A stretch of 64,000 nucleotides of DNA, from the NCBI GenBank assembly GCA_965223905.1, contig CBDCXV010000011.1:480001-544000 (forward strand). Direction: 5' to 3'. Positions 47,204 to 64,000 of the stretch are shown piece by piece (positions within the stretch are counted from its first letter, which is position 1; each line of letters opens with the position of its first letter). Origin of the DNA: Candidatus Latescibacterota bacterium. Lineage in GTDB: Bacteria > Latescibacterota > UBA2968 > UBA8231. Below the pieces are notes generated by a model. That model was not told where the DNA came from and did not search any database. It saw nothing but the letters and a program-made list of their open reading frames with translations. Both the position numbers and the translations under genes were made by a program.

Positions 47204-47326
47204 CCGGACGACGACGTCTGGGACGTCGTATGGGCGGCACAACTCTCGAACAGATCCGACTATCTGGGGTATCTGGTGACCTTGACCTTACAGACCTTTA
47301 TCACGATTATCGCCGGTCTGGAGTAA
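47204..47326 (+). pseudogene. 3' remnant of a paralogue of the 50855-53599 barrel gene
   Basis: PDDDVWDVVWAAQLSNRSDYLGYLVT-LTLQTFITIIAGLE* versus TDDDFWEVVWAAQLSNTSAYLGYLVT...LQSFITIIAGLE*. Confidence 0.85.
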
Positions 47327-47331
47327 CCGAT

Positions 47332-47380
47332 GCCACATGTCAAACCGTCAGAAAGGAGGTCAAGGGTAGAGTCGTGTGGC
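47332..47380 (+). promoter_or_regulatory. Candidate hairpin with an unpaired perfect SD (STAB-SD-like), copy 1
   Basis: GCCACATG...GAAAGGAGGT...CGTGTGGC, ~70 nt upstream of the ATG. Confidence 0.45.
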
Positions 47381-47431
47381 TCATCATCGCGAACCATTTC
47401 TTAACATTCTTTACACGTTGTGAGGATATCC

Positions 47432-48397
47432 ATGAAAGCAAAGTATCTGCTCGTAGCAGCGATGGGCCTCATGCTGGGGTTATCGACCAGCGCCTCGGCC
47501 CATTCTGCTGTTCAATCGACGGACGTTTTCGCCGCGGCGTTCCCTGCGGGCACTGAGCCCGTGGTCGATGGTGATCTGGGTGAGTGGGACTGGATCAGAG
47601 AGACCAGTCTCAGAGACGTCTACACCCTTTCCGCTCAGGATTTCAACTACCAGGCCCGGGGTGGAAACCCGGACGGTATCGCGGAAGATTTCTTTCCAGC
47701 CGGTGACAACACCAATCTCGAGGACTTCAACTTCAACATAACCCTGGGCTACGGTCCGGGAACCAATCTCCTGTACCTGGGGATTGAGATCTTCGACAAC
47801 GACCACGTGCGCTGGGCGACCCCGGATCAGTTGTGGCAAGAGGACGGCTTCAACATGTGGATGGATCCCGACCACGATGATGAGTTCGGCGGCACCAGTG
47901 TTCCCCCTCGACCCTTTCAGGAGATTCTCTTTGCTCCCCAAAAGCTGGATGGAGAGAATGCGTTGATCGAGTCCGATGGCAACTCCTGGCAGGTTGCTCA
48001 CGATGAGCTCATTTGCGCCGACCCGGGCAGCTGTCACGACAATCGGGTATTCGACGTTGCCTTCACTAACGACGGTCCGGAGTTCGGAGAAACCACCACC
48101 TTCATCGAAGCGTGGGTCGAACTCTACAACTACCTGGATCCTGACGAGTCATTGCATGCCTCAGACAGCGACCCCCACATCATGAACCCGGAAGGCGTGA
48201 TCGGATTCAACATCTATTTCCAGGACATGGACACGATAGATGGCGAAATCGCCTACACCAACCGTTACTTCAATACCGAGAATACCGGTGACCCAAACGG
48301 GTTCGGGGATGTATTCCTGGCGCCGCTCGAGGCGGACGCCCCGACGGCCGTCGAATCGACGACCTGGGGTCGAATCAAGGCGGCGAATGTCAACTGA
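47432..48397 (+). CDS. Secreted acidic protein (CBM9/DOMON-like) with C-terminal TWGxIK motif, copy 1
   Basis: Signal peptide ending ASA; PVVDGDLGEW, LYLGIEIFDND, IGFNIYFQD; ends PTAVESTTWGRIKAANVN. Confidence 0.8.
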   Translation: MKAKYLLVAAMGLMLGLSTSASAHSAVQSTDVFAAAFPAGTEPVVDGDLGEWDWIRETSLRDVYTLSAQDFNYQARGGNPDGIAEDFFPAGDNTNLEDFNFNITLGYGPGTNLLYLGIEIFDNDHVRWATPDQLWQEDGFNMWMDPDHDDEFGGTSVPPRPFQEILFAPQKLDGENALIESDGNSWQVAHDELICADPGSCHDNRVFDVAFTNDGPEFGETTTFIEAWVELYNYLDPDESLHASDSDPHIMNPEGVIGFNIYFQDMDTIDGEIAYTNRYFNTENTGDPNGFGDVFLAPLEADAPTAVESTTWGRIKAANVN

Positions 48398-48498
48398 AGA
48401 GTCCATGGCGAGATGACCGGGCGGCAACGCATTTCACACCGTGCGGCGCCACGGGATTCTGCCTAGACTCAAAACTGCAACAAGGACATTCACGGTCT

Positions 48499-48532
48499 GG
48501 AGGAGAGAGGGTCGCCCGATCCTCCCTCCTCC
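48499..48532 (+). other. Strong stem-loop without U-tract, copy 1
   Basis: GGAGGAGAGAGGGTCG-CC-CGATCCTCCCTCCTCC. Confidence 0.6.
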
Positions 48533-48580
48533 GTCTTGCTGGCACTTCCAGCTGCTTCGAAGTTCGCGTACCGAAATCAG

Positions 48581-48609
48581 TTGGATTAGCGGATGTTTTT
48601 CATTATAAT
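48581..48609 (+). promoter_or_regulatory. Candidate sigma70 promoter
   Basis: TTGGAT-N17-TATAAT immediately after the repeat ends. Confidence 0.45.
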
Positions 48610-48691
48610 GGCAGGATGCTTTTCTCTGTCCTTGTATTTCAGCCAGGATTAAGACACGGTAGCGCCCCCATTAACCGGCTGGGTTGGTGGG

Positions 48692-50836
48692 TTGGGTTGT
48701 TCGCGGGCGGTCGTTTCGATTCGAGAGCATATGATGGGATCGCGCCGATGTGATGGCCCTGGGGTCCCGCGGCGGGCGCGCGCCAGCACGGTCCGTCGTA
48801 GGCGCTGTAGTGCGCTGCTCTCAAGGTGCGACGGCACTTTTCGCGGCCTCGCGCTGGTTGGCCTGTGCTGCTTCATACCCAAAGCTGCGGACAGCTTTGA
48901 AACCATCGTCGTCGGCGGTGGCTCTGATCCCTGGCAGGAGGGCGGCGACGGCATCGATCCGGAATTCTGGATCGCCCCCCAGGAGGTCGAGGTCGCCAAC
49001 TCCGTGGGCGGAGCCATAGACTTCACCTCCCTCCCCGGCTCGATCCTTCCAGCTTTCATCGACACGACGGAGAATCTCGCGCTCGGAGCGCTGGCCCGCG
49101 GCGGATCCATCAAAGCGCCCAACGTGCTGGAGCAGAGCCGCACCGAGTTGCAGAGGATTCTCGGCGACATCATCGATGGCAGTCCCGGCAAGGCGTTCGA
49201 GCGCAAGAGCACTGATACGCAGCACGTAAACCCCAACGGGATATTCATCGTCCTCGACCTCGGAGGGCGTTTTGGGGTGAACCGAATCCGCTTCTACCCG
49301 CGCAATACGATCCTCGAGAACCCGGGCACACCCTTTCACTTCGATTACCTCCGCGGCTATGAACTCAGCACCAACGATGGATCAGCGGCCACGACTACGG
49401 AAGCCGGGGATCCCGTTTTCGCAGTCCTTCATCGGGAGGATCAGAACAAGGATGCCGTAGTCGATTTCCGCTTCGATCTGCAATTCGTCCGCTATCTCGA
49501 GTTGAAGTCGGTGACGACGGTGGGGTTCGAAATCGATGAACTGGAGGTCTTCGGCAAGGGGTTCGTGCCCGAGGCGGTATTCCTGTCGGACGTCATCGAT
49601 CTCCGCAGGCCCGCACTGTTGGATGCGATCCGGTGGTCGGAAGAGGCGATCGGGGACTCAGCGTTATCCCGATTGCTGATGAGAACCAGGGTGGGCGATG
49701 ACGCCACCCCCCTGGTCTACACCAGGATCATTGAGGGCCTGGGCACGGAGACGCCGCTCTCGGCAAGAACGGGCGAGCCCCTCACCTTGGAGGAGTACGA
49801 CGAGCTCGGAGTGGCGGCAAAAGGACCGGTGAAACCCGACGCCGAAAACTGGAGCCCCTGGTCAGCACCCTACCCCGAGGACGCGGGTAGTGGAACGCAG
49901 ATCGCTTACTCCAGGCCCCGCCGATTCGTCCAGTTCGAGGCTTCGATCCGCAGCAGCCTTGCGGCCACCCGCTCTCTGAGCCTGGTGGAAATGGATTACA
50001 CCATCACTCCTCTGGCTGCCGCTCTAACCGCGGAGATCTTTCCGCGCTCGGTCGAGCCGGCGGTGCCGACACCGTTTACCTACGCCGTGCGAGCCGACTT
50101 GTCTCGCGGCGTGAACTCCGGCTTCGACCGCTTGGTGATTGCCACACCGGAAGCCGTCACTCGGGTGGACAGGATCGAGTTGCGCGACGCAGACGGCATG
50201 GTGGTGGCAGGGCAGGATTTCGGTGATTTTCTGGCCGCGGCGCACCTGCCGTTGCGCCGCGGCGAATTCGGCATAGAGGAACTGCACCGCGATCGTCTGC
50301 ACATCAGTTTTCCGAAGATCACCGTCGACCAGACCCTGCTGCAGGTACAGTTCCACAGCAGCGTATTCCGTCACAGCACCCCGTTCGTGGGACAAGCGTT
50401 GAACAGCGAGCTCCCGGAAGCGAGGCAGCCACTGGAGCCGGGCAATGCAACGGTGTTGGCCGCAGACGATTTGGACAGCTCGTCCGGTCTGGCGGTGGAG
50501 ACCGTCCTGGGAAACCGGTTGATCGCCGCTCTGGTTGCCACACCCAATCCCTTCACTCCAGATGGAGACGGGATCAACGAGGTGACGACGATCTCCTACG
50601 GTATCCTCAAGCTGGATCTCGGCAGGCAGGTGCAGGTAGTCATTTTCGATCTTTCCGGACGCCCCGTGCGTTCGCTCTACGACGGCAACGACAGCAGCGG
50701 AGAGTACCGGTGGGCCTGGGATGGAACGGATGACAGGGGCAAGCTCCTCGTCCCGGGGACTTACCTGTTTCGCGTGTCGGTGGAGGGAGACCTCGAGCAC
50801 CAGCGCGCCGTCGGGGTCATCAATATGGTGTATTGA
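48692..50836 (+). CDS. Secreted protein: discoidin-like domain plus CHU_C/FlgD-Ig C-terminal domain (paralogue A)
   Basis: LDLGGRFGVNRIRFYPR, ELEVFGKGFVPE, WSPWSAPY, PNPFTPDGDGINE, WDGTDDRG...PGTY, ends MVY. True start is probably downstream of 48692. Confidence 0.8.
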   Translation: MGCSRAVVSIREHMMGSRRCDGPGVPRRARASTVRRRRCSALLSRCDGTFRGLALVGLCCFIPKAADSFETIVVGGGSDPWQEGGDGIDPEFWIAPQEVEVANSVGGAIDFTSLPGSILPAFIDTTENLALGALARGGSIKAPNVLEQSRTELQRILGDIIDGSPGKAFERKSTDTQHVNPNGIFIVLDLGGRFGVNRIRFYPRNTILENPGTPFHFDYLRGYELSTNDGSAATTTEAGDPVFAVLHREDQNKDAVVDFRFDLQFVRYLELKSVTTVGFEIDELEVFGKGFVPEAVFLSDVIDLRRPALLDAIRWSEEAIGDSALSRLLMRTRVGDDATPLVYTRIIEGLGTETPLSARTGEPLTLEEYDELGVAAKGPVKPDAENWSPWSAPYPEDAGSGTQIAYSRPRRFVQFEASIRSSLAATRSLSLVEMDYTITPLAAALTAEIFPRSVEPAVPTPFTYAVRADLSRGVNSGFDRLVIATPEAVTRVDRIELRDADGMVVAGQDFGDFLAAAHLPLRRGEFGIEELHRDRLHISFPKITVDQTLLQVQFHSSVFRHSTPFVGQALNSELPEARQPLEPGNATVLAADDLDSSSGLAVETVLGNRLIAALVATPNPFTPDGDGINEVTTISYGILKLDLGRQVQVVIFDLSGRPVRSLYDGNDSSGEYRWAWDGTDDRGKLLVPGTYLFRVSVEGDLEHQRAVGVINMVY

Positions 50837-50854
50837 GTTTCTCCCGGCCGATCT

Positions 50855-53599
50855 TTGAACGATCGGGTCGGGCAGATGCTCGTACCGACACCATCGTGCA
50901 GATGGGAGCGGAAAGTGATAGTACCCTCAGGCAGAGCTCGATGTCCCGTGGCAGGGATCGCAGCGGTACTACTGTTGCTCGTCGACCCCTCGACGGTTGC
51001 TGGCGAGGATTTCGGCAGCCGCCTGGGGGCCCGCCGGGGCGGCGAGTTGACCTTTGTTCCGCAGGGCGCAGGAGTGTTGTTCAGCGCGCTCGATCCGACG
51101 GTCAAGCGCTGGTACGTGCCGCAGGAGTTGTTCAATGAATACCGGTGGAAACAGTGGGAATACTCCAACTTCGCGAGAGATCCGTACGAGCGCTATGTCG
51201 ATATTGCCCTCGAGGGTAACTACTTCTACGATCAGTTCGGTGAATTCGTCTCCAAAGGTTGGCTCATCTACGATTGGCGGCAGACCCAACCGCGCCAGTT
51301 CGGCAACTCCATCTACAAAGACGGTCGCTTCAGCAGCTGGTTCAGTCGGGTGCTCATCTCCGCCGATCGCAAAGACGAGCACCACTTCAGCGTCACCGTC
51401 GGCCAACCGATCCGTACGACATTAACGCCGATGACGTTCTCCAAGGTCGCCTTCGATGGCATTCAGGCGGACTATGCCGCGGACAAGTACCACGCCACGG
51501 TGGTCCTCTCCCGCGTCAACAGTCCCGGATTCACGGGATCGGGTATACCGGTCGAGCAGACCAACAGCACCGTTCTGATGGGCGGACGGGCGACCGCGCA
51601 GGTGGGCGATTTCGCTACCGTCGGCGCGACGTACGTGAATGGGCATCAGGCGCAAACCCTGCATGACAACTTCCTCGAGGACGTGTTCAGCGGCAGCCTC
51701 ACGGTGGACCAGAACGCGATTCCCATCTCGTGGATCGAGATTCACCTCAAAGATGACTCACCTGAAGATGGAGAAGGAGGGGCGACCTATTTCCCAGCTG
51801 GATCAGACATCATCATCACCTACGCCGACGGGGTCGAGGAAGAGGGTGAGTCCTTCGGTTTCACCCCGATCATACAGGGGGGATTTTCCGGTCTGGGGTC
51901 CATCTCAGCAGACGGGGAGGAGACCATCCGGATCCGCTACGACTTTGACAGCCAGGCCTTTCTCACCGGGGCACACGCCGGCAAAGCCGATATCGAGCAG
52001 ATCCGCTTCCGCCTGGTCCTGTCGAATGATTACCAGGTATGGGCCACCTCCAATCGCCAGAGCAACCGCTCAGGACAACCGGTCCTGTTGCTGATCACCC
52101 AGGCCAAAGGCAACGTCAAGGACAACTCCAGCCAACGGCTCGTCGAATTCGAGTACGGCTTGCCCACCAGCAACCAGATCCTGGGGTACACCCTGGAGCT
52201 CCACGATGTTGAGGGCTTTCAGCTCTACTTCGAACACAACATCAATCACCGTTTCCGAAAATACCCCAGTGTCGGACTGCAGTCGCACCCCACGTCGTCG
52301 GGGATCCTGGGAGACGAGTTTGGCGAGGCGTGGATGATCAACCTCTCCCGCCAGAGCTACCCATGGTTCTTCTTCGCCGAGGGCTTCAGCATGGACCCCG
52401 AATACGCGACCGATATCTTCCTCACCAGCGGCAACGGGGTGATGGATTACGAGACGGTGAGATTGGGACGTTTCGAGTTCGTGGATGACAACGATGACCA
52501 GGATAGATTTCCTGACTGGGACCGGGTCTTTGAGCCCCATGAAGACGCGGTTTTCCCGGGCTGGGACGAGAACAACGACTTCGTTTCCGATTTCAATCAG
52601 AATGACAATGATCTGCGTCCGAACCTGATCCCCGACTACGAGGAGCCCTTCCTGCGCATCGACGTCGATCCGCCGGAGTTTCTGTTTGGAATCGATCTGA
52701 ACAACAACGTCTGGATCGATCGCTTCGAGAACGACGAAGCGGCAGACTATCCCTACAAGAAGGACCACCGGGGGTACAACGTTTATGTCGGCACCCACGT
52801 GACTCCCGAAACGAGATTGAGCGTCGGCCAGGTGCGGGATCGTTTGATCTCGTCGAACCAGGAGAATGTCACGACCTACGGTCTGGTCACTCTGGAAAAG
52901 GATCTCGCCGGTTTGGGGAGGCTGCGCCTCTTCGACATGGTCAAGAGGGCCGAGGACGACATTCCGGATCACCTATTGCAGTGGGTCCAACCCTTCGATT
53001 CGCGGGGCGAGCACCAGCAGTTGCGCGATCAACGCCTCGCTCGGCGCACCTGGATCAACACGGCATGGTTGGGCTTCGACTATACGGCCATCCGCCGGTT
53101 CAGGCTGGACACCAAACTCAAATACGAAGTGTATGACCAGCGGGGCGAGAAAAGCGAGATCGATGCGCGGGGGGTCAGACCGAGCGACTATTTCTTCGGC
53201 TTGGTCAACAGGGCGAGCTATGTCTTCCAATTCGGGCGCTTGAGAGTACAACCCAATTGGAAGAGCCTGCTGCGCCTGCAAACCTATGACATACTGCGCG
53301 CCGAGAAACGCCGCGAATGGATGCAGATCTACAACCTGCGTCTCAATTTTCCGCTGCTCTCCGGATCGACGATCGATCTGGGCGTCGAGCACATGCGTTT
53401 CAATGACCTGCGCAAGCAGACCGACGACGACTTCTGGGAAGTCGTTTGGGCAGCCCAGCTTTCGAACACATCCGCCTATCTGGGATATCTGGTGACCATG
53501 AAAACGGGCTTCGACGTCAGCACTCGAAAAGCAGCAGACTCGGACGACACGACCAACATCCTGCAGTCGTTCATCACCATCATCGCCGGCCTGGAGTAA
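50855..53599 (+). CDS. Large secreted, probably outer-membrane beta-barrel protein with D/N-rich Ca-binding-like loops
   Basis: Hydrophobic signal region; many alternating aromatic/polar strands; VDDNDDQDRFPD, WDENNDFVSDFNQNDN, DLNNNVWIDRFEND. Start uncertain. Confidence 0.7.
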   Translation: MNDRVGQMLVPTPSCRWERKVIVPSGRARCPVAGIAAVLLLLVDPSTVAGEDFGSRLGARRGGELTFVPQGAGVLFSALDPTVKRWYVPQELFNEYRWKQWEYSNFARDPYERYVDIALEGNYFYDQFGEFVSKGWLIYDWRQTQPRQFGNSIYKDGRFSSWFSRVLISADRKDEHHFSVTVGQPIRTTLTPMTFSKVAFDGIQADYAADKYHATVVLSRVNSPGFTGSGIPVEQTNSTVLMGGRATAQVGDFATVGATYVNGHQAQTLHDNFLEDVFSGSLTVDQNAIPISWIEIHLKDDSPEDGEGGATYFPAGSDIIITYADGVEEEGESFGFTPIIQGGFSGLGSISADGEETIRIRYDFDSQAFLTGAHAGKADIEQIRFRLVLSNDYQVWATSNRQSNRSGQPVLLLITQAKGNVKDNSSQRLVEFEYGLPTSNQILGYTLELHDVEGFQLYFEHNINHRFRKYPSVGLQSHPTSSGILGDEFGEAWMINLSRQSYPWFFFAEGFSMDPEYATDIFLTSGNGVMDYETVRLGRFEFVDDNDDQDRFPDWDRVFEPHEDAVFPGWDENNDFVSDFNQNDNDLRPNLIPDYEEPFLRIDVDPPEFLFGIDLNNNVWIDRFENDEAADYPYKKDHRGYNVYVGTHVTPETRLSVGQVRDRLISSNQENVTTYGLVTLEKDLAGLGRLRLFDMVKRAEDDIPDHLLQWVQPFDSRGEHQQLRDQRLARRTWINTAWLGFDYTAIRRFRLDTKLKYEVYDQRGEKSEIDARGVRPSDYFFGLVNRASYVFQFGRLRVQPNWKSLLRLQTYDILRAEKRREWMQIYNLRLNFPLLSGSTIDLGVEHMRFNDLRKQTDDDFWEVVWAAQLSNTSAYLGYLVTMKTGFDVSTRKAADSDDTTNILQSFITIIAGLE

Positions 53600-53653: not shown

Positions 53654-53691
53654 CTTCCACGCAAGGGAATATTTCATCAATTAACCAGTGA

Positions 53692-53721
53692 GAGCAATCA
53701 TGAAAGGAGCAATCATGAAAG
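53692..53721 (+). repeat. 15-bp tandem duplication spanning the start codon
   Basis: GAGCAATCATGAAAG x2. Confidence 0.9.
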
Positions 53722-54680
53722 CGAAGTATCTGCTCGTAGCAGCGATGGGCCTCATGCTGGGGTTATCGACCAGCGCCTCGGCCCATTCTGCTGTTCAATC
53801 GGCGGACATTTTCGCCGCCGCGTTCCCCGCCGGCACTGAACCCGTGACCGATGGAGATCTGGGTGAGTGGGACTGGATCAGAGAGACCAGTCTCAGAGAC
53901 GTCTACACCCTTACCGCTCCGCAGTTCAACTACCAGGCGCGGGGTGGAAACCTGGATGGCCTCACGGAAGATCTCTTTCCAGCCGGTGACAACACCAATC
54001 TCGAGGACTTCAACTTCAACATGACCCTGGGCTACGGTCCGGGAACCAATATGCTGTACCTGGGGATTGAGATCTTCGACAACGACCACGTGCGCTGGGC
54101 GAACCCCGATAATTTGTGGCAGGAGGACGGCTTCAACCTGTGGTTGGATCCCGACCACGACGATGAGTTCGGCGGCACCAGTGTTCCCCCTCGGGAGTTC
54201 GAGAAAATTATCTTTGCTCCCGAAATTCTGGATGGAGAGAATGCCCGAATCGAGTCCGATGGCGCTGACTGGCACGTTGGTCACGATTCGATGATTTGCT
54301 CCGGCCCGGACACCTGTCACGACGATCGGATATTCGACGTTGCCTTCACTAACGACGGTCCGAAGTACGGAGAAACCATCACTTTCGTCGAAGCGTGGGT
54401 CGAACTCTACAACTACCTGGATCCTGACCGGTCATTGCATGCCTCAGACAGCGACCCCCACATCATGAACCCGGAAGGCGTGATCGGATTCAACATCTAT
54501 TTCCAGGACGTGGATTTTGTAGATGGCGAAATCGCTTACACCAACCGTTACTTCAATACCGAGAATACCGGTGACCCAAACGGGTTCGGGGATGTATTCC
54601 TGGCGCCGCTCGAGGCGGACGCCCCGACGGCCGTCGAATCGACGACCTGGGGTCGAATCAAGGCGGCGAATGTCAACTGA
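53715..54680 (+). CDS. Secreted acidic protein (CBM9/DOMON-like) with C-terminal TWGxIK motif, copy 2
   Basis: Close paralogue of 47432-48397 with identical signal peptide and C-terminus. Confidence 0.8.
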   Translation: MKAKYLLVAAMGLMLGLSTSASAHSAVQSADIFAAAFPAGTEPVTDGDLGEWDWIRETSLRDVYTLTAPQFNYQARGGNLDGLTEDLFPAGDNTNLEDFNFNMTLGYGPGTNMLYLGIEIFDNDHVRWANPDNLWQEDGFNLWLDPDHDDEFGGTSVPPREFEKIIFAPEILDGENARIESDGADWHVGHDSMICSGPDTCHDDRIFDVAFTNDGPKYGETITFVEAWVELYNYLDPDRSLHASDSDPHIMNPEGVIGFNIYFQDVDFVDGEIAYTNRYFNTENTGDPNGFGDVFLAPLEADAPTAVESTTWGRIKAANVN

Positions 54681-54858: not shown

Positions 54859-57417
54859 ATGGCGCACCTCAAATATCTGGCTCTGTGGCGGCTGGCCATC
54901 TGCGCTCTGGCTCTGGTGCTGGTCGTCCCGGCGCCATCCCGCGGACAGGGGTACTCCGTTGAGAGCGGCCGCGTGGTCGTAAACACGGCGAGCCACTGGG
55001 AGGACTGGACCCACCCCGAGGGGGTCATCGACATCGCCGACGGTGTGGTAAGACCCTTCTTCATCCGCAAGAGCATCGACGCCGTAGCGAATGCCGCGCA
55101 GTTCGGCGGGGGCATACGTGCCGCCGGCTCAAACCTCCTGCAGGCCGCCAGGATACTGGACCCGGAGCTGAGCACGTTCTGGGAACCGGACAAGGACGCG
55201 CCGCTCGAGGACTGGTGGGTTGAGGTCGACCTCGGACGATTGGTAGTCGCGACGAGGATCGTCGTGCGCTTTGTGGAAGAGGGCATGGGAGATCCGTTCA
55301 ACCGCTTCGCCGTCCTGAGTTCAACGGGGACGGAAGTCTCGGCCGGCGTCCTGCAGTTCGATCCCGTGGGCAAAGCCCTGGCCCGCGGACGGCGGGTATT
55401 CGAGTTCGAGTTGTCTCCCGAACCAGACCCGATGGGATGGACGGGAGAGCCGATTCGCTTCGTACGCCTCGATGTCACGGACAGCCGTCGGGGTCGGGCG
55501 GAACAGATCACCAAGGCACAGTACGAGGCTTTGGCGGCCAATGACCGGGGTGACATTCAGTACCATGTCAGGAGTCTGGCCGGGATAGAAACGCGGGCCA
55601 GCCGCGAGATTTATCAATCCGTGGCGGCGGAGCGCCGGGGCTCGCTGCACTATTTTCGGCGCGAGCGACCGCGCCTGGCCCACGTCGAGGTATGGACCCT
55701 GGGAGACAACATCAGCCTGGGGTGGGAACAGCGCCACGGCCGCGTGGAAGTGGATTTCAGAGGCGGAAACAATCCGACCCATCTCTTCGACGGCGACTTC
55801 GAAACCGGGTGGAGGAGCAAAGCGTGGGTGGGATTCCCGGACCGCTCCAGACTCGAAGTCGATCTGGGCGCCCATTTCTGGGTAGATACCTTTCGCTTGC
55901 TCTTGAGATCCACGTTGCTGGGTTACAGGCTCCAGGGCTCCGATGGTTCCACCGCGCCGGATGGGACGTTGATCTGGCAGGACTTGAGCCCGGACTCGCG
56001 CACGATTCTCAACAACACGGCCAAGCGCTACGAGGAAGGTTTCGCTCCCTTGAAACTGCGTTATCTGGCCTTCCAAACCCTGAACGCGGCAAGGATCAAT
56101 GACGACCATCGGCTCGTCCGCGAGATCCAGCTCTTCGGCGAGGGGTACGTGCCGGAGGTGACTCTTACTTCGGAGCCGATCGAACTGACACAAGCGGGAG
56201 AGCGCACGGCGAGAACGCGAAACCTGACTTCCATCGAATGGACTGCGGTAAACCAACCGGAGACTGACGTGGTGATTCGGACCCAGACGGGCAATGGGTT
56301 GACGCGACAGATCACCTACTACAACACGAAAGGCGAGCCAGTCTCCAAGGAAGAGTACGATAAGATCCCCAGTTTCAGACTGAAGGATACGCGCCTCGAG
56401 ACTACCTTTGTCGAGGATGCAACCTGGAGCAATTGGAGCGAGAGGTACATCCAACCGGGCGAACGCATCAAATCGCCTAGTCCGCGCAAGTTTCTGAAGA
56501 TCGAGACGACGCTGTTGACGGACGATCCAGAGCTCTTTCCGATGTTGGAGGATATCACAGTCCATTTTCGCGATGCTCTGGTGCAAGGCCTCGTCGGTGA
56601 GATCTGGCCGAACCGTGACGTGGAGCCGCTCCTGCCGCATGAATTCGAGCTCTTCATCGCACCGCAGTTCGTCGGACGGGAGGAAGGCTTTGACCAGATC
56701 CTCGTCGAAAGCCCGCCCGGTATAACCATGGAACTGTTGGATCTGAGCATTGGCCAGGAAGCGGATTCTCTGACGACGGCGAGCGAGTTCTCGCCCACGG
56801 ATTCGGGCAGCTTCAGCGACGACGGTGGCCTGGTGGTGGACGTCTTGAGCGATCGCGGCGACTCACTGTGGATCGCTCTACCCGAAGTCCTCGCCACCCG
56901 GGCGCAGGCGGGGTTGGTCCGCCTGCGTTTCAAGGCCAGCGTGTTCTTCCACGGAACCACCTTCGACGTTTCCGTCAGCAACAGCGCGGCCCCGGGTGAG
57001 TGGCAGGGCGTCGATGCGGGGGATGCTACTTCGCTGCGGCCCGGTCAGACCCTCGCGGTCTCTATTCCACTGGAAAGCAGGAGCCTGATCGGCGATGTGA
57101 CGATCCGGCCAAACCCTCTCACGCCCAATGGAGACGGCATCAACGATGAGGCGCGGATCGGGTTTTCCGTCTTGAGGTTGAATGTCTCGAAGGCTGTGGG
57201 CGTTGAGATATACACCCTCTCGGGGTTTCTCGTGAAGGAGTTTTCCCTGCAGCGAGCCATAACCAGCGGCCGCTACGATGAGATCCGCTGGGCGGGCGAT
57301 GATCTGTCCGGCTCTCTGGTTCCTCCGGGGATCTACCTGGCCAGAATCCACGTCGACACGGATGCAGACGATGGTGAGGACGCCACCGCGCACCGCTTGA
57401 TCCATGTGGTGTATTGA
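54859..57417 (+). CDS. Secreted protein: two discoidin-like domains plus CHU_C/FlgD-Ig tail (paralogue B)
   Basis: Signal peptide; WWVEVDLGR, LEVDLGAHF, EIQLFGEGYVPE, WSNWS, SPSPRKF, PNPLTPNGDGINDE, PPGIY, ends VVY. Confidence 0.85.
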   Translation: MAHLKYLALWRLAICALALVLVVPAPSRGQGYSVESGRVVVNTASHWEDWTHPEGVIDIADGVVRPFFIRKSIDAVANAAQFGGGIRAAGSNLLQAARILDPELSTFWEPDKDAPLEDWWVEVDLGRLVVATRIVVRFVEEGMGDPFNRFAVLSSTGTEVSAGVLQFDPVGKALARGRRVFEFELSPEPDPMGWTGEPIRFVRLDVTDSRRGRAEQITKAQYEALAANDRGDIQYHVRSLAGIETRASREIYQSVAAERRGSLHYFRRERPRLAHVEVWTLGDNISLGWEQRHGRVEVDFRGGNNPTHLFDGDFETGWRSKAWVGFPDRSRLEVDLGAHFWVDTFRLLLRSTLLGYRLQGSDGSTAPDGTLIWQDLSPDSRTILNNTAKRYEEGFAPLKLRYLAFQTLNAARINDDHRLVREIQLFGEGYVPEVTLTSEPIELTQAGERTARTRNLTSIEWTAVNQPETDVVIRTQTGNGLTRQITYYNTKGEPVSKEEYDKIPSFRLKDTRLETTFVEDATWSNWSERYIQPGERIKSPSPRKFLKIETTLLTDDPELFPMLEDITVHFRDALVQGLVGEIWPNRDVEPLLPHEFELFIAPQFVGREEGFDQILVESPPGITMELLDLSIGQEADSLTTASEFSPTDSGSFSDDGGLVVDVLSDRGDSLWIALPEVLATRAQAGLVRLRFKASVFFHGTTFDVSVSNSAAPGEWQGVDAGDATSLRPGQTLAVSIPLESRSLIGDVTIRPNPLTPNGDGINDEARIGFSVLRLNVSKAVGVEIYTLSGFLVKEFSLQRAITSGRYDEIRWAGDDLSGSLVPPGIYLARIHVDTDADDGEDATAHRLIHVVY

Positions 57418-59339
57418 GCGCAGAGAGGATAGACATGGCGGCCAAAGGCATGCATCTGAGGATCATCATGGTGACCCACGTGCTGAGCGTTCTGATGACG
57501 CGAGACGGCCTGGCTTTGGAGCGGTATGTCATCGGTGGAGTGGGGGGACAACCGTGGGCCGAGGCGGGAACCGCCTATCTGCTGGAGAGCGAGTCGACGG
57601 AGATTTCCCCCATACATATCGCACCAGATGAGAACATCGGACCCGCCAGCTATGACCTGGGAGGCGGTTCCCTCAATTGGGGCTTTGGCAGCACCGGGGA
57701 AGGTGATGCCAACGACATGGCGAAAGACGCCATGTTCGACCGCAGCGACACCACGGCCTTCGTGCTGTTTCCCAGTGGCGTCTCCGGCATATTTCGCAGC
57801 TACCGCGCGCGCCTGATGCTGGAGCTGGGTGGTAGGTTTCCGGTCAACCGCGTGCGCTTCTTTACGCGCCCGGACTTCCCCTTCCGGGCCCCCGACGACT
57901 TCGATCTCTACGTGAGTCCGGACCAGAGCGAGGCGCGACTTGGCCCGATCGACGACCTGGTGTGGACCCAGGTTGCCGCGGAACAGGAAAACAGGAATCC
58001 CGAGGTCGAGATAACGTTTCCCGCTCAGTGGGTCCGACGCGTTGTGCTGGATGTCAAGTACCTCGATGTCCCTAACACCCAGGTGACCCAGGGAAGACTC
58101 CCCGGTGAGCACAACTGGGAGATCGCCGAGTTCGAAGTGTATGGGGAAGGTTTTGTGGCGGAAGCCTCGTACACCTCACACATTATCGATTTCGTGGACC
58201 CTGCCATCTGGGGCAAGCTCCGCTGGCCCGGACATCGAGATCCCGAGGCCAAAGTGCTGGTGCGCACGCGGACCGGGACCGACGCTACTCCTGACGTATT
58301 CTGGCGCAACACCGGGGTCGGTGATGAGAGCGAACCCGCCGATCTGACCCGCGCGCAGTACGACCGCCTGTCCGCTGCCGACAAAGGACCGATCACCCCG
58401 GATCTGGAGCATTGGAGCTTCTGGTCTGCGCCCTACGAGTTCGAAGCGGGCCAGGAGGGAACCCCCGTCGTCTCTCCCGGACCGCGCCAGTATTTTCAGA
58501 TCAAGATCGATTTCCTGCCCACGATCACGGCCGGAGCCCGCATCGATTCCCTCGAACTGGAGTTTGACACGGTGCGAGCGGCAAAAAGCGTGACCGCTGA
58601 GATCTGGCCGGAAAAGGTGGAACCGGCCAAGGTGGAGACCTTTGTCTATTCGGTGCGGCCTGTCATTGAAGAGGGCGACACCGGTTTCGACAGGCTGAGA
58701 ATCTTCACTCTGGTGGAGGCCGAAGGCGTGCGCTCGGTTCGCCTAGACGGACAGGAGGTCGACCTGGATGCGTTTGTGCCGCAAATCGGCGCAGACCAAC
58801 TGGTGGTCAGCTTCCCCAAACTCGAGCAGAGGGACACGTTCGCACTGGTCGAGGTCGAGTTCGAGGTGGCCGTGGTGCGGTACGGGATGCAGTTCAACGG
58901 CTGGGTGTACGACCACGAGCACGTAGAGCAGGGCGGGATTCCGCAACTGGTCGAGGCGGGCGATGCCACGGCCGCCTACGCGGGCAACTCGCTGTCGGTA
59001 CAGACCGAATTGGGCACCTCTGTGATTGCCGCCGTCAAGGCCGGGCCCAATCCCTTTACCCCGAACGGAGACGGCATCAACGATCGACTCATCCTTTCCT
59101 ACAGTCTCCTGGGGCTCAACCAGGCCACGCCGGTCACTATCCAGCTGTTCGATCTCAGCGGCCGGCGAGTCAGCGTCCTTCACCGGACACAGGCCGTCAA
59201 CGGCATCTACGAGACGATTTGGGACGGTACATCCGACGACGGCCGACTGCTGCCGCCGGGTTCCTACCTCTACCGGTTGTCGGTGGACACGGATGAAGTG
59301 GAAGCGGTGCACACGGGTGCCGTCTCTGTCGTCTACTAG
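57414..59339 (+). CDS. Secreted protein: discoidin-like domain plus CHU_C/FlgD-Ig tail (paralogue C)
   Basis: LELGGRFPVNRVRFF, EFEVYGEGFVAE, WSFWSAPY, SPGPRQYFQ, PNPFTPNGDGIND, PPGSY, ends VVY. Confidence 0.85.
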   Translation: MSAERIDMAAKGMHLRIIMVTHVLSVLMTRDGLALERYVIGGVGGQPWAEAGTAYLLESESTEISPIHIAPDENIGPASYDLGGGSLNWGFGSTGEGDANDMAKDAMFDRSDTTAFVLFPSGVSGIFRSYRARLMLELGGRFPVNRVRFFTRPDFPFRAPDDFDLYVSPDQSEARLGPIDDLVWTQVAAEQENRNPEVEITFPAQWVRRVVLDVKYLDVPNTQVTQGRLPGEHNWEIAEFEVYGEGFVAEASYTSHIIDFVDPAIWGKLRWPGHRDPEAKVLVRTRTGTDATPDVFWRNTGVGDESEPADLTRAQYDRLSAADKGPITPDLEHWSFWSAPYEFEAGQEGTPVVSPGPRQYFQIKIDFLPTITAGARIDSLELEFDTVRAAKSVTAEIWPEKVEPAKVETFVYSVRPVIEEGDTGFDRLRIFTLVEAEGVRSVRLDGQEVDLDAFVPQIGADQLVVSFPKLEQRDTFALVEVEFEVAVVRYGMQFNGWVYDHEHVEQGGIPQLVEAGDATAAYAGNSLSVQTELGTSVIAAVKAGPNPFTPNGDGINDRLILSYSLLGLNQATPVTIQLFDLSGRRVSVLHRTQAVNGIYETIWDGTSDDGRLLPPGSYLYRLSVDTDEVEAVHTGAVSVVY

Positions 59340-59367: not shown

Positions 59368-61350
59368 ATGGATCAGCCTGTTTTCCCGGCACAACGCAAC
59401 AACACTTCGGCCGCCATCGTCAGAGGTTGCACCGCCCGGGCCTTGATCATCGGTTTGGGGGGGGCTCTGTGCATAAGCCTGGGCTCGACCTACAACGACA
59501 TGATCATCAAGGGCCCTCCGTTGGCCCGTTGGAGCGTCACGCCAGCAGCGATCTTCCTGTTCTTCATCCTCGTCGCCGTCGTCAACACCTTCCTGGGTCT
59601 CATCCACCGCCCCCTGGCACTGCAGCGGGGCGAGTTGGCGGTGGCCTACGTGCTCATGGTGCTGGGCAACACCCTGTCGGGCGGGCTCTCGGGATATGTT
59701 TTACCCGTCATCAGTGGGCCCTATTACTACGCGACGCCCGCCAACAACTGGCGCGAGGATGTGCTCCCTTTCCTGCCGGATTGGATAGGCCCTCGGGATG
59801 CCGATGTCATCCGCGACTTCTACGAAGGCAACCCTACCGGCGGCATACCCTGGGAAGTATGGTCTCTGCCCTTGCTCCTGTGGCTCCTGTTCGCGCTGGC
59901 GCTGTTCCTCGTCATGGTCTGCATGATGGTGATCCTGCGCCGGCAATGGGTGGATCACGAGAAGCTCGCCTACCCCATGGCGCAACTCCCGCTCGCCATG
60001 ATCGCCGACGACAAATGGGAAAGACTGGTCAAGCCGTTGTTCCGCAACTCGGTGATGTGGTTGGGTTTTGCTTGTCCTTTCGTGTTGGCGTCGCTGGATG
60101 CCCTTCACAGTTATTCGCCTACCTTCCCCCGCATCGTACTGTCTGTGGGAAGTTTCCAGTTGTTTTTCGAGCGGGCGGGCATCGGCATGCATTTCTACCC
60201 GTCCATCACCGGTTTCTCCTACCTCATCCACCAGAATGTGGCCGCCGGCCTGTGGTTCTTCTACCTCATCAGTCAACTGGAGCGCGGCGTCTTCGACGCT
60301 GTGGGCTGGTACACGCCTGAGAGCTCGGTCGGGAATTTCAGCCAGTACCTGGACCCCATCATCCTGCACCAGTGCATGGGGGCTATGGTCGCACTCGTGC
60401 TCGGATTCCTCTGGATAGGCCGGGATCACCTCAAGGCTGTGGCCCGCAAGGCGTTCTTGGGCGATCCCGAGGTGGACGATTCGGATGAAATCGTCTCCTA
60501 TCGAGTGGCCGTCGGCGGCCTTCTAACTGGCCTCGCGGGCATGGCTTTCTGGTTGTGGCAGACCGGCGTGCCCGCCCCCTACGTACCGCTGTTGCTGTTC
60601 GGGGCCTTCGTCGTATTCCTCACTGCCACGCGAGAAGCGGCCCAGGGGGGTGTGGCGGCGATGTACGCGCCGACCGTGGCCCCTGACATCGCCGTCTCCG
60701 CGGTCGGGGGATCGATTCTGGGACCGCACGGCTTGGCCGGACTGGCCCTGACCTATCCGTGGAGCACCGGTCGGGCGACGATGATGATCATGATGGTGGC
60801 CTGCGCCAACGGACTGAAGGTGATCAGCGAAGTCGATCTACCCCATCGCCGGCGCCTGTTCGGCGGTATCGTCGCCGTCATCGTCTTGAGCCTGACGGCG
60901 ACCGTCAGTCTGATCTTCTATCTCAGCTACCAGCACGGAGCCGTCAACCTGAACTGGTACTTCGAGGTCTTCGCCAAGTACCCGTACGAGTTTATGGCGA
61001 AGAACGTGGGCAATCCCACGGGACCGAACCTGAACGGGTGGATGCACAAGGGCCTGGGAGCCGGCTTGATGGCAGGACTGTTGGTACTGCAGCATCGCTG
61101 CCCCTGGTGGCCCTTCCACCCTCTGGGGTTCCCGATCGGCGCGGTCTTCGGCCGCATGTGGTTCAGCGTGTTCATCGCCTGGTTGGTCAAGGTCCTGATC
61201 CTCAAATACGGCGGTTCGAGGCTCTATTCTCGCATGAGACCGCTCTTTTTGGGCTTGATCCTCGGGGAGCTGGTGGTCGGCGGGTTCTGGGTCGTCATCG
61301 ACTCCATCACCGGCATGCAGGGCAATCATCTGGAAGGGGTGGTTTTTTGA
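59368..61350 (+). CDS. Polytopic inner-membrane protein, DUF6785/DUF6784-like (putative transporter)
   Basis: More than 14 hydrophobic segments; ILRRQWVDHEKLAYPMAQLP, WWPFHPLGF, AWLVKVLILKYGG...PLFLGLILGE. Confidence 0.75.
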   Translation: MDQPVFPAQRNNTSAAIVRGCTARALIIGLGGALCISLGSTYNDMIIKGPPLARWSVTPAAIFLFFILVAVVNTFLGLIHRPLALQRGELAVAYVLMVLGNTLSGGLSGYVLPVISGPYYYATPANNWREDVLPFLPDWIGPRDADVIRDFYEGNPTGGIPWEVWSLPLLLWLLFALALFLVMVCMMVILRRQWVDHEKLAYPMAQLPLAMIADDKWERLVKPLFRNSVMWLGFACPFVLASLDALHSYSPTFPRIVLSVGSFQLFFERAGIGMHFYPSITGFSYLIHQNVAAGLWFFYLISQLERGVFDAVGWYTPESSVGNFSQYLDPIILHQCMGAMVALVLGFLWIGRDHLKAVARKAFLGDPEVDDSDEIVSYRVAVGGLLTGLAGMAFWLWQTGVPAPYVPLLLFGAFVVFLTATREAAQGGVAAMYAPTVAPDIAVSAVGGSILGPHGLAGLALTYPWSTGRATMMIMMVACANGLKVISEVDLPHRRRLFGGIVAVIVLSLTATVSLIFYLSYQHGAVNLNWYFEVFAKYPYEFMAKNVGNPTGPNLNGWMHKGLGAGLMAGLLVLQHRCPWWPFHPLGFPIGAVFGRMWFSVFIAWLVKVLILKYGGSRLYSRMRPLFLGLILGELVVGGFWVVIDSITGMQGNHLEGVVF

Positions 61351-61353
61351 GGT

Positions 61354-64000
61354 TTGAAACCAGTATGTTCAATCCTCCTCCTCTGCGGGTGTGTCTCTGA
61401 GACCCGACCCGTAGCCGACGACCCTGCAGCTGACGGCGCGACAGGTCCCGCTGTGGCGCAGGTTCGGTTCGTGGACGTCACGGCCGCATCGGGTCTGGCC
61501 TTCACCCACGTATCGGGCAGTCCCCAGCAACGCTACATCCTGGAGACCACGGGTGGCGGAGCGGCGTTCGTGGACTATGACGGTGATGGTTTCCTGGATG
61601 TCTTCGTCGTCAACGGCACCCGTGTCGAGGAACAGCCGGAGGAGGCTCACAACCGGCTCTTCCGAAACGTCGAAGCAGCGAGTGGGCCGGGACGGCGGCA
61701 GTTCCGGGAGGTGACGGAAGAAGCCGGGTTGAAACGCTCGGGTTGGGGCATGGGTTGCGCCACCGGCGATTACGACAACGATGGCGATGTCGATCTCTAC
61801 GTCACCTACTGGGGAGCGAACGTCCTCTACCGCAACGAAGGAGACGGGACGTTCGTCGACGTGACCTCGTCCGCGGGGGTGGGAGACGAGGGTTGGGGTT
61901 CCAGCGCTGCGTTCGGGGACGTGGACGGGGATGGCCAGCTGGATTTGTACGTCGGCAATTATCTGGTCTTCGACCTGGCAGCGCCGCCCAACGACGGCCT
62001 GCCCTGCGGGGCCCTCAAAGGGTTGAAGGGCTTCTGTGGCCCTGTCGGGATGGAGGCGCAGACCGATGTGCTGTATCGCAACGAGGGCGGGGGCCGGTTT
62101 GCGGATACAGGTCCGCAAACCGGCGTCGGCCAGCACGCTTATCCCACGCTGGGTGTCGTTTTCGGAGATTACGACCAGGACGGCGACCAGGATATCTACG
62201 TGGCCAATGATGCCGAGCCCAACCTGCTGTGGCGCAACGACGGCGGCTGGCGCCTGAGTGAGGTGGGCGCCGTCGCCGGCGTGGCCTACAGCGAGGACGG
62301 CCGGGCCCAGGCCGGGATGGGAGTGGACTTCGGTGATTACGACAACGACGGCGATCTGGATCTGTACGTGACCAACTTCTCTGACGATGTGAATACGCTG
62401 TACCGGAACCGGGGCGACGGTACCTTTGCCGATGCCACGGCTCTGTCTGGCTTGGAAGGAACGGCACGGCCCTACCTGGGCTGGTCCACGTCCTTTTTTG
62501 ACGCGGACAACGATGGTTGGCTCGACCTATTCGTGGCCAATGGCCACGTCTATCCGCAGCTGGAAGAGCATCCGTCGGTGCTGCGCTACCCGCAACGGAA
62601 CCTGTTTTACCACAATCAGGATGGCGTGTTTAGCCCCGTCGATGCCGGTCCGGGCATGGAGGTTGAAAAGGTCAGTCGTGGGACCGCCTTCGGGGACTAC
62701 GACAATGACGGTGATGTGGATCTGCTGGTGATGAACCTGAACGACGCACCGACATTGCTGCGCAATGAGGGCGGCAACGCCAACAATTGGCTTGGTCTGC
62801 AGCTGGTGGGCACCACGAGCAACCGGGATGCGATCGGGGCCCGGGTGCGGGTGCAGGCCGGGGATCTGGCGCTGGTGCGGGAGGTGCAGCGCGGCTACGG
62901 CTACCAGTCTCAGCACGACCCGCGTCTGCTGTTCGGCCTGGGGTCGCGCCAACAGATGGAATGGGTGGAAATCCTCTGGCCTTCGGGACGACGGCAGCAG
63001 CTGGAGGGTCTGCCGCTGCGTCGTTATGTTGTGGTCCGCGAAGGGAGCGCCGACGTACTGGCCGGCGACGTCGTACCGCAGGATGAGTCAGCTGGCACGA
63101 CCCCCTCATCACCCGTTGCGGCAGGCTCGGCCGCCCCTGCTCCGCAGGTCGGGCAGCCGGACTGGACGGCGAAGGATTATTTCCGGGCCGGGGTTTCGTT
63201 CTATGAGCAGGCGCGTCACGGCGAAGCTCAGGCGGCGTTCGAGCAGGCCGTCGAGCACGACCCCGACTATGCTGTCGCCTACATCAATCTGGGCATAATG
63301 CTCTACTTCAAAGGCAGCTACCAGGAGGCCGCTGTCGCGGTGGAAAGAGCAGCCCGGCTGGATCCCTCCCAGGCCGAGACATTTAGCCTGCTGGGCAGGT
63401 TCTATCTCGGCCTCAACCGTCCTGACCTGGCGCTCGTGGCTTTGGGCAGGGCCACCCGGCTGGCTCCGAGCGTCTGGGAGTATCACCATTGGCGGGGACT
63501 GGCTTTTGCGCGCGCCGACAGCACCGAGGCGGCCGTGGCTGCGTTCCGTCAGGCGTCCAAACACGCACCCTGGGAGCCGTGGCCTCATCAGCGCCTCGCC
63601 CGGCAGTACAGCGAGTTGTCGCGGCCGCAGCTGGCAGCCCGCGAGCAGCAGCTGTTCGAACAGCTGGCTCCCCGCAAGCAACGGGTGGTGAGGTACCGAA
63701 GGGAGATCGAGGAATACCCCGAGAAGGCCGCTCTGCACAACAAGCTGGGCCGCGCCTACCTCGAGCAGGGTCGGCCGCGGGATGCCATGCGTCAGTTCGA
63801 CCTGGCCGTCGAGCTCGACGCGGAGTTCGGGTTGGCGCATTACGGCCGCGGAGCTGTGTTGCACCTGCAAAAGCGAACAGCCCTCGCCATCCTGGCCTAC
63901 CAGGAGGCCTGCCGGGTGCAGCCGGATCTGTTTGAGGCCTTTCACGATCTCGGGCTGGCCTACAGTCAGACCGAGCAGTACGAGAAAGCCATCGTCGCTT
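61354..64000 (+). CDS. CRTAC1-family (FG-GAP repeats, ASPIC/UnbV) lipoprotein with C-terminal TPRs; runs off window end
   Basis: Manual translation from TTG 61354: MKPVCSILLLCGC...RFVDVTAASGLAFTH...DYDGDGFLD, repeated GDYDNDGDxD, SNRDAIGARV...RLLFGLG, then TPR helices. Absent from the ORF track because it has no stop. Confidence 0.88.
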   Translation, partial: MKPVCSILLLCGCVSETRPVADDPAADGATGPAVAQVRFVDVTAASGLAFTHVSGSPQQRYILETTGGGAAFVDYDGDGFLDVFVVNGTRVEEQPEEAHNRLFRNVEAASGPGRRQFREVTEEAGLKRSGWGMGCATGDYDNDGDVDLYVTYWGANVLYRNEGDGTFVDVTSSAGVGDEGWGSSAAFGDVDGDGQLDLYVGNYLVFDLAAPPNDGLPCGALKGLKGFCGPVGMEAQTDVLYRNEGGGRFADTGPQTGVGQHAYPTLGVVFGDYDQDGDQDIYVANDAEPNLLWRNDGGWRLSEVGAVAGVAYSEDGRAQAGMGVDFGDYDNDGDLDLYVTNFSDDVNTLYRNRGDGTFADATALSGLEGTARPYLGWSTSFFDADNDGWLDLFVANGHVYPQLEEHPSVLRYPQRNLFYHNQDGVFSPVDAGPGMEVEKVSRGTAFGDYDNDGDVDLLVMNLNDAPTLLRNEGGNANNWLGLQLVGTTSNRDAIGARVRVQAGDLALVREVQRGYGYQSQHDPRLLFGLGSRQQMEWVEILWPSGRRQQLEGLPLRRYVVVREGSADVLAGDVVPQDESAGTTPSSPVAAGSAAPAPQVGQPDWTAKDYFRAGVSFYEQARHGEAQAAFEQAVEHDPDYAVAYINLGIMLYFKGSYQEAAVAVERAARLDPSQAETFSLLGRFYLGLNRPDLALVALGRATRLAPSVWEYHHWRGLAFARADSTEAAVAAFRQASKHAPWEPWPHQRLARQYSELSRPQLAAREQQLFEQLAPRKQRVVRYRREIEEYPEKAALHNKLGRAYLEQGRPRDAMRQFDLAVELDAEFGLAHYGRGAVLHLQKRTALAILAYQEACRVQPDLFEAFHDLGLAYSQTEQYEKAIVA

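Follow-up and report, generated by a model that had tools for sequence, protein, structure and literature searches.

Proteins with type-B-like secretion tails and a giant predicted outer-membrane barrel form a repeated gene module in a Latescibacterota genome

The subject of this paper is a cassette of eight genes, T1, PA, B, T2, PB, PC, D and C in that order, all on the + strand between positions 47420 and 64000 of a 64,000-nucleotide stretch of the genome of a Candidatus Latescibacterota bacterium (GenBank assembly GCA_965223905.1, contig CBDCXV010000011.1, positions 480,001 to 544,000 of the forward strand; this whole stretch is called the window, and coordinates are window positions). The conserved core of the cassette is smaller than eight genes and is a repeated module, in which a gene for a secreted protein T is followed by one to three genes for tail-bearing exported proteins P and by one or two genes for a giant predicted outer-membrane barrel B. 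Adjacency of P to B is near-obligate, and the class of C-terminal tail that P carries is tied to B along the chromosome and across genomes. The explanation we favour is that P proteins are cargo of type IX secretion (the T9SS), displayed on B as their cognate giant barrel, which would play the part of PorP/SprF, while T would help by binding glycans, and at present it might equally well prove right or wrong.

In detail, P would combine discoidin-type binding domains with a C-terminal domain of about 100 residues acting as the signal, and B, encoded directly downstream, would be the cognate shuttle or anchor of the P tail, as PorP/SprF-like barrels are for the type B cargo of Bacteroidota, so that P would be displayed on the cell surface through B. 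T would be a secreted CBM9-fold accessory binding glycans (or else a metal or a cofactor), and the net function would be the non-enzymatic capture of, or adhesion to, surface glycans or glycoproteins, with the roughly twenty diverged cassettes perhaps having different specificities. D, an OPT-like permease, and C, a CRTAC1-like lipoprotein with tetratricopeptide repeats (TPR), would be frequent and non-obligate neighbours. T-P-B is read as a cargo-anchor module because of the adjacency of P and B, the co-occurrence of tail and barrel, the SprA and PorU of the genome and the published precedent of type B cargo; the secretion of P by T9SS, a binding of its tail to B and the ligands are what we infer.

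Linkage of P and B in this genome and elsewhere

The source genome (7.9 Mb in 11 contigs, 93.6% complete) holds, by a rough gene call with BLAST labels, about 34 B, 45 P, 12 T, 41 full D and 47 CRTAC1-like genes. Its 35 long B matches make up 26 arrays of one to three tandem genes, and directly upstream of 20 of these arrays, on the same strand, lies a gene with the P-class tail. T is found close by as well, with nine of ten T genes at most 10 kb from a B. In the typical order T comes first, one to three P follow and one or two B close the series, to which D is in some cases added at one or the other end; this order recurs about 20 times in this genome.

At least 889 relatives of B exist in the protein collection, all of them unnamed or hypothetical and none with a Pfam domain, from sources named Latescibacteria, Handelsmanbacteria or Gemmatimonadetes. 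One genome per species was scanned, 477 encoding places were confirmed and 78 loci, from the best 80 of these, were examined, many of which share a genome or chromosome and hence are not independent. Of these 78 loci, 69 have at least 2.5 kb of DNA upstream of B. In 64 of the 69 the end of a tail-bearing P gene falls in the range from 136 nt inside B to 272 nt before its start, and in the other five T or another B is upstream of B. Neighbours at most 10 kb from B are T in 43 of the 78 loci, D in 26 of them and CRTAC1-like genes in 16. An earlier note, made from the letters of the window without database searches, had proposed all eight genes as one machine whose neighbourhood might be conserved in other genomes; the conservation is there for P and B and the T-P-B core stands, and D and C turn out to be loose neighbours of it.

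Across the phylum, one evenly drawn sample of 121 genomes was surveyed, with B called at E<=1e-10 and the P-class tail at E<=1e-18. B is present in 71 and the P-class tail in 66. Both occur in each of the 40 genomes of family f1, and neither was found in families f2 (0 of 29), f3 (0 of 13) and f4 (0 of 2). Family f7 has B only, without the P-class tail; of the 13 genomes of family f10, 12 have B and 8 have the tail, by matches that are weak in both cases, and one further genome (G042) has a borderline match to the tail and no B. Since relatives are not independent, this co-occurrence is to be taken as a pattern at the level of families and not as a statistic. Co-location by chance was considered and is rejected on the recurring gene order here and elsewhere together with the co-occurrence in the phylum.

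Some evidence bears on expression. Four runs of a single study, labelled sponge metagenome, contain RNA-library contigs that match parts of T1, PA, B, T2, PB and PC at 99% identity or more. In all four runs contig depth is 15-37 over the T genes (47336-48669 and 53339-55339) as against 1-6 for P and for B; there is next to no coverage of D and of most of C, although contigs of this kind cannot show absence. Transcription of the cassette is hinted at by this, with T as perhaps its most abundant message, under the reservation that such contigs cannot rank genes and that DNA may occur in an RNA library.

The P proteins and their C-terminal tails

PA (48692..50836 (+), 714 aa as listed, the true start being probably later) is exported, as are PB (54859..57417 (+), 852 aa), which has a discoidin domain, and its paralogue PC (57414..59339 (+), 641 aa), and each has a P-class C-terminal domain (CTD) and a terminal VY. 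The motifs that the earlier note had listed for the three paralogues, including PNP-x-TP-x-GDGIN and the terminal VY, are indeed common to all three in an alignment of PA, PB and PC. By family models (window proteins were matched to Pfam and NCBIfam throughout), PA has both CHU_C (31.1 bits) and FlgD_ig (42.1 bits) above the cut-off of 27, PC has CHU_C at 39.2 bits (cut-off 27), and PB has F5_F8_type_C at 30.3 bits (cut-off 28.2) with CHU_C at 19.5 bits, under the cut-off of 27. The scores with the CTD profile are 131, 121 and 132 bits for PA, PB and PC. Among 35 P relatives at E<=0.01, CHU_C matches all 35, FlgD_ig 29 and F5_F8_type_C 19, in line with the proposed resemblance of the tails to T9SS type B CTDs. 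TIGR04131, the model for type B, matches 28 of 29 P tails at E<=0.01.

A profile built from 16 P tails was run on all six-frame open reading frames (ORFs) of this genome, and its matches fall into two groups. The upper group has 56 ORFs at 64-142 bits, which have an aromatic end after a hydrophobic pair (54 Y, 1 F and 1 W), and 47 of the 56 are at most 8 kb from a B. The lower group has about 115 ORFs under 60 bits, mostly ending in ..LL[RK] and nearly all far from any B; such endings look like those of ordinary type A tails. The 65 upstream P genes extracted from other loci all end in [VI][AV][YF]. Of the family models, those for type B come nearest to the P tail, which yet stays below the TIGR04131 cut-off and is for this reason called here a type-B-like, distinct class ending V-[AV]-Y, an assignment that is ambiguous. 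This ending and the sub-threshold score are also what sets the P tail apart from the tails of type B cargo.

B, a giant predicted outer-membrane barrel

B (50855..53599 (+), 914 aa) starts 18 nt after the end of PA. It belongs to no Pfam or NCBIfam family, and B with 36 relatives (37 sequences in all) gave no consistent family match even at E<=10; in particular there was no match to Plug or TonB_dep_Rec at E<=10, none to PorP_SprF (PF11751, TIGR03519), and for B itself none to a TonB box. Searches of PDB sequences with T, with the B profile and with D returned matches at chance level only.

A model of B from the 37-sequence alignment (pLDDT 67.8, pTM 0.66) has about 24-26 long strands in hairpins. 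Foldseek of this model gave 114 PDB matches at E<=0.001 with outer-membrane barrels on top, the foremost being MtrB, SlpA, LptD, the FimD usher, TonB-dependent receptors and SprA (E 1.7e-9 to 1e-4), and VIA-align gave Z of 11-14 solely to outer-membrane barrels. Since the matches of both methods are all barrels, B is taken to be a large outer-membrane barrel of a family that these matches do not pick out. The 914-aa protein, suspected from its strands in the earlier note, thus models as an outer-membrane beta-barrel. Within the model, residues 293-434 form a confidently modelled inserted beta-sandwich. Residues 546-627 (about 52490-52735) form an acidic, D/N-rich loop of low confidence with invariant DNDD and NQND motifs, which looks like a calcium-binding region. 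Residues 39-121 (about 50969-51217) are among the most conserved parts of the protein with many invariant aromatics and are unmodelled (pLDDT <50); this N-terminal segment may be a plug or may bind a partner.

The best structural matches, MtrB, LptD, the FimD usher, Deinococcus SlpA and SprA, are outer-membrane barrels that hold partners, and their strand count is comparable to that of B, but B has no sequence likeness to them in the PDB and the resemblance may just be that of one big barrel to another. The PorP/SprF barrels are in a different size class, the Pfam and TIGR models having 273 and 292 positions as against the roughly 900 aa and 24-26 strands of B, which in addition lacks a sequence match to them. 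The genome has B-like paralogues that are more distant, two of them about 25% identical to B (L140, G000:C10:2107893-2110775, and L142, C11:908093-911077). These two of 12 such paralogues show SlpA_C below threshold (E 1e-4 to 3e-4, 20-21 bits, cut-off 35), which echoes the Foldseek matches of B to SlpA. The idea that B is a relative of DUF5916 barrels fused to CBM9 was dropped, DUF5916 being found in 0 of the 12.

T, a CBM9-fold protein

There are two T genes in the cassette, T1 (47420..48397 (+)), coding for a secreted 325-aa protein, and T2 (53688..54680 (+)), a second CBM9-fold copy with the same tail pattern and 330 aa as listed; the earlier note had counted a single gene of this kind with a TWG tail. 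T1 and T2 have 86% protein identity, and T copies of different loci are 21-29% identical. A word-based search for homologues gave a single relative, and the others were taken from neighbouring loci. At the DNA level 47431-48562 and 53714-54844 are a duplication of 92.8% identity over 1133 nt, which takes in the T gene and about 165 nt of downstream non-coding sequence.

T1 and T2 have no Pfam match at E<=0.01 and no NCBIfam match, CBM9_1 not being reached. A model from 28 sequences (pLDDT 72, pTM 0.73) finds the CBM9 structure 7nwn in Foldseek at E 1e-8, and 1i82 and 7nwo with target TM-scores of 0.72-0.73 (the CBM9 range being 0.70-0.73); weaker matches are the heme-binding DOMON-like subunits EbdC and NxrC. 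By this model T is a CBM9 fold, as the earlier note had surmised for its small protein. T superposes on known CBM9 modules such as the CBM9-2 of Thermotoga Xyn10A (1i82), next to which it can be compared with the CBM9/DOMON fold of EbdC and NxrC, but it lies below Pfam detection by CBM9_1, is a stand-alone secreted protein rather than a module of an enzyme, and has an invariant mature N-terminal His and a C-terminal tag.

Among the 28 sequences H28, D126, E230, D271, W316 and K320 are invariant. W56 and W190 are nearly so. The predicted signal peptide of T1 ends in ASA directly before His28 (47501-47503), at which the mature protein begins, and a His directly after a small-x-small signal-peptide end is present in 27 of 27 T relatives from other loci as well as in T1 and T2. 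His152, in a DxDH motif, is nearly invariant, and residues 27-31 have pLDDT <50. Copper histidine-brace proteins are characterised by a His at the N-terminus of the mature protein. As a lead, the N-terminal His of T would be a candidate metal or cofactor site, on a fold that is CBM9/DOMON and not that of lytic polysaccharide monooxygenases.

The C-terminal tail of T1 reads TAVESTTWGRIKAANVN. In T the pattern is TAVE-xx-[ST]WG-x-[IVLM]K with a few residues after it (48340-48394 in T1, 54623-54677 in T2), and no NCBIfam model matched this WGxIK tag in T. Genome-wide 85 of 35,869 stop-to-stop ORFs of at least 100 aa have the tag in their last 30 residues, for which a rough chance estimate is about 2. 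By Pfam, 20 WGxIK-tailed proteins other than T comprise three with CBM9_1 (43.1, 34.5 and 22.3 bits, two of them above the cut-off of 23.4), three with PD40 propellers, nine with no match, and single proteins matching LVIVD, molybdopterin oxidoreductase, FGE-sulfatase-like, CarboxypepD_reg and lipocalin-like families. The tag looks like a sorting or anchoring signal because a short sequence is common to unrelated exported folds, and it may be a new signal for sorting or for anchoring at a membrane.

D and C, loose neighbours of the core

D (59368..61350 (+), 660 aa) is a polytopic inner-membrane protein with at least 11 hydrophobic segments in a simple hydropathy scan. It is a full-length member of DUF6785/DUF6784 (PF20581/PF20580; DUF6785 at 396 bits over positions 1-498 of 498, E 2.8e-118, and DUF6784 at 98 bits, E 3.8e-28), families proposed to be distant permeases of the OPT/Yellow-Stripe fold, and D is probably a permease. 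Its relatives are all unnamed, and the literature search, from which subscription journals were outside, found no paper on DUF6785. An assignment of D to OPT by sequence was tried and rejected: PF03169 occurs in 0 of 22 D relatives at E<=10 and nowhere in the genome, the control having matched in two genomes. An Atlas cluster of archaeal D relatives has OPT on 11% of its members.

DUF6785 is matched 58 times in this genome and 29-40 times in each of another five genomes with B (G121-G125), gene numbers comparable to those of SusC/D in Bacteroidota. Within three genes of the 41 full D copies the most frequent neighbours are P (14), CRTAC1-like or TPR genes (12) and other D (9). Around 20 D loci that lack P, B and T there are 113 neighbours, mostly cytoplasmic catabolic enzymes; among the neighbours are PhyH dioxygenases, xylose-isomerase-like TIM barrels, aldose epimerases, aldo-keto reductases, UxuA, enzymes of the enolase superfamily, a sulfatase, peptidases and a gamma-glutamyltranspeptidase. 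Such neighbours fit DUF6785 as a family of importers. Giant FtsX-domain proteins (843-1639 aa) also adjoin some DUF6785 genes (L093:750-5183, L109:1-4920 and L101:1-2532).

C (61354..64000 (+), running past the end of the window to window-equivalent 64290) is a CRTAC1-like protein of 978 aa with FG-GAP_3 (174.9 bits in 7 stretches, E 4.7e-52) and UnbV_ASPIC (68.9 bits, E 3.4e-19), followed by TPR families, and its N-terminus, LLLCGC, is lipoprotein-like. D and C are both frequent but loose neighbours of T-P-B and not obligate parts of it.

Secretion components, precedent and rival explanations

The genome has SprA (607.6 bits summed, above cut-off) and PorU (617 bits, above cut-off), the latter followed by a PorV-like ORF, so of the T9SS core genes that the earlier note had thought worth searching for these two are present and the PorV-like ORF falls short of its cut-off. 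No PorP/SprF was found in the genome with TIGR03519 or PF11751, in a search that matched none of 14 control genomes either. Type B cargo is reported to bind PorP-like barrels for anchorage (PMC9143113) and to need cognate shuttles that are often encoded adjacently (PMC12618676). The literature search, with the coverage already given, found no paper on T9SS in Latescibacteria, as it had found none on DUF6785, and to that extent supports the earlier note, which knew of no characterised system with this composition; the display half does have a functional precedent (PMC9143113 and PMC12618676). Given that type B cargo on PorP/SprF-like barrels is already known, the system is closer to a known kind than the earlier note held.

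Likeness to the type B pairs of Bacteroidota (SprB-SprF, PG1035-PorP and Fjoh_3952-Fjoh_3951) extends to several features. In both a cargo with a CHU_C/TIGR04131 domain of about 100 residues adjoins a gene for an outer-membrane beta-barrel, there are many pairs per genome, and the cargo is large, non-enzymatic and at the surface. The gene order of sprB-sprF, too, is cargo and then barrel. The module differs from the Bacteroidota systems in that it includes the CBM9-fold T and in that its hosts are Latescibacterota.

Several observations weigh against P as T9SS cargo on B. The PorV-like ORF scores 91 bits against a cut-off of 250 and GldK 92.5 bits against 350, and GldM had no match in the genome, in a search that matched none of the 14 control genomes; the blanks for GldM and PorP/SprF are weak evidence since those searches matched no control genome, and the results for PorV, GldM and GldK fall short of demonstrating the motor and ring of a T9SS. 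The class of the P tail is ambiguous because TIGR04131, with a cut-off of 35, gives PA 20.6 bits over the whole protein and 26.2 over its tail, and PC 28.7, and because the tail of PA, taken by itself, barely reaches the type A cut-off (23.6 against 23). B has no detectable sequence likeness to PorP/SprF and is about three times longer, its model is of moderate confidence, and the structural matches are all generic barrels with query TM-scores of 0.12-0.27. In 6 of the 26 B arrays of this genome no P-class gene is directly upstream. Co-duplication of neighbouring genes would yield equal adjacency and co-occurrence without physical contact, and a physical binding of the P tail to B is what analogy with the Bacteroidota pairs would suggest.

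An import function is the rival closest to what the earlier note had in mind. Here the cassette would be a capture-and-import device like a polysaccharide utilization locus (PUL), B being a SusC-like channel, P and T the counterparts of SusD and of surface glycan-binding proteins, D the inner-membrane importer and C an accessory, periplasmic or a lipoprotein. Such a role suits a T of CBM9 fold and a P with discoidin domains, and it suits the wide barrel of B, which has channels and TonB-dependent receptors among its structural neighbours. In the window the gap from PC to D is 28 nt and that from D to C is 3 nt; elsewhere 26 of 78 loci have D at most 10 kb from B, in this genome D is near 11 of the 26 B arrays, and the sugar- and amino-acid-catabolic enzymes that adjoin D in 20 other loci are consistent with an importer. 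SusC/SusD systems resemble the cassette in having multi-copy, diverged outer-membrane barrels with surface binding proteins and sometimes an adjacent importer, and CRTAC1/ASPIC-like genes adjoin SusCD pairs in Bacteroidota. But the cassette has no match to a TonB-dependent Plug or barrel, to a TonB box or to SusD, it has no glycoside hydrolases, no degradative enzyme lies in the cassettes looked at, and its binding proteins have T9SS tails rather than lipoprotein signals. Only 10 of 48 DUF6785 places in this genome are within 10 kb of a B, the other 38 being away from any, and D is absent from the 10 kb around B in 52 of the 78 loci; ordinary TonB-dependent receptors are encoded in this genome, one of them in the window (30398-33592), and a role as channel leaves the strict linkage of tail to B unexplained. 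Import is an unlikely account, and a possible one for the cassettes that contain D. The uptake half of the earlier note has weak support, with B lacking a Plug or TonB-receptor match and with D and C frequent but loose neighbours.

A slightly lower probability still goes to an adhesin system of the SprB/SprF kind, for attachment to a host or to particles, in which the diverged P/B cassettes would be variable adhesins in a host matrix. Its architecture is identical to that of cargo displayed on B, discoidin domains are common in adhesion proteins, the RNA contigs at 99% identity or more come from runs labelled sponge metagenome, and paralogues diverge fast, as the low identity of T between loci (21-29%) illustrates; however, glycans as nutrients are favoured by T having a CBM9 fold and by D and C being frequent neighbours, and gliding-motor genes were not found, the GldM blank being from a weak search. 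An envelope scaffold like an S-layer, with B as a giant barrel of the SlpA type that ties a layer of P and T to the outer membrane without T9SS, seems very improbable. Deinococcus SlpA complexes rank 2nd to 4th in the Foldseek of B and weak SlpA_C matches occur in 2 of 12 distant B-like paralogues, yet those matches are under the 35-bit cut-off, B itself has no SlpA_C, some 34 diverged B genes in one genome do not suit a single structural layer, and the P tails match T9SS signal families.

Display of P on B as T9SS cargo is thus the explanation retained. A bolder version of it, tentative and rather more doubtful than the display itself, makes B the founder of a class of giant barrels that replaces PorP/SprF outside Bacteroidota for a Tyr-terminated T9SS signal, and that with its N-terminal-His, WGxIK-tagged CBM9-fold partner would form a multiplied glycan-capture device, a non-homologous counterpart of PULs.

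The locus and its surroundings

The description of eight co-oriented genes for exported or membrane proteins, none of them a recognisable enzyme, agrees with the ORFs and with the family searches, in which no catabolic enzyme family was matched among the cassette proteins by Pfam or NCBIfam. Besides the short spacings of PA to B, PC to D and D to C already given, PB and PC overlap by 4 nt; T1 and T2 have wider gaps on either side than the rest of the cassette. A scan for promoters and terminators over 46900-64000 gave fewer sites than shuffled sequences and is uninformative.

The cassette had been taken to start at 47204, which falls in a remnant of the C-terminal end of another B-family gene (47171..47323 (+); tblastn with B residues 845-914, 47% identity), downstream of IS91 and PhzF fragments. 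An IS91-family transposase (44224..45666 (+), Y2_Tnp with Zn_Tnp_IS91) is at the upstream edge, outside the cassette, with the PhzF fragment near it. Beyond the window come, in order, a SurA-like peptidyl-prolyl isomerase, a second FG-GAP/ASPIC gene, an opposite-strand CarboxypepD_reg/FlgD_ig gene and a second IS91 copy. The two IS91 copies (44319-45504, and G000:C11:552060-553245, window-equivalent 72060-73245) are 100% identical over 1186 nt and about 26.5 kb apart, and with one on each side the whole cassette lies between two identical insertion-sequence copies. A segment with amidohydrolase and Ldh_2 before the first copy (42241-43561) is repeated directly after the second at 92% identity. 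The arrangement could be a recent IS91-mediated rearrangement or an effect of assembly.

Further upstream in the window, the TonB-dependent receptor at 30398-33592 has a CarboxypepD_reg N-terminal domain and a Plug match, and by these family matches indicates that the organism has classical outer-membrane importers besides B.

Significance

Latescibacterota are uncultured and the biology of their cell surface is largely unknown. The investment in genes seen here, with about 34 B, about 45-56 P and about 48 DUF6785 in one genome, is large, as is that in SusCD pairs in Bacteroidota, and B and T are without any Pfam or NCBIfam entry in spite of it. By analogy the working principle is one with a known counterpart, namely type B cargo and its anchor, and the barrel is an unrelated one about three-fold larger. 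If B does partner the P-class tail, the principle of cargo-specific shuttles or anchors in T9SS would extend beyond Bacteroidota with an unrelated and larger barrel, a simple rule (PNPFTPNGDGxND ... V-A-Y) would predict displayed proteins in these phyla, and T and the discoidin domains would be defined candidates for glycan binding. The WGxIK tag and the invariant N-terminal His of T are in addition testable leads, which may point to a new sorting signal and to a new metal or cofactor site.

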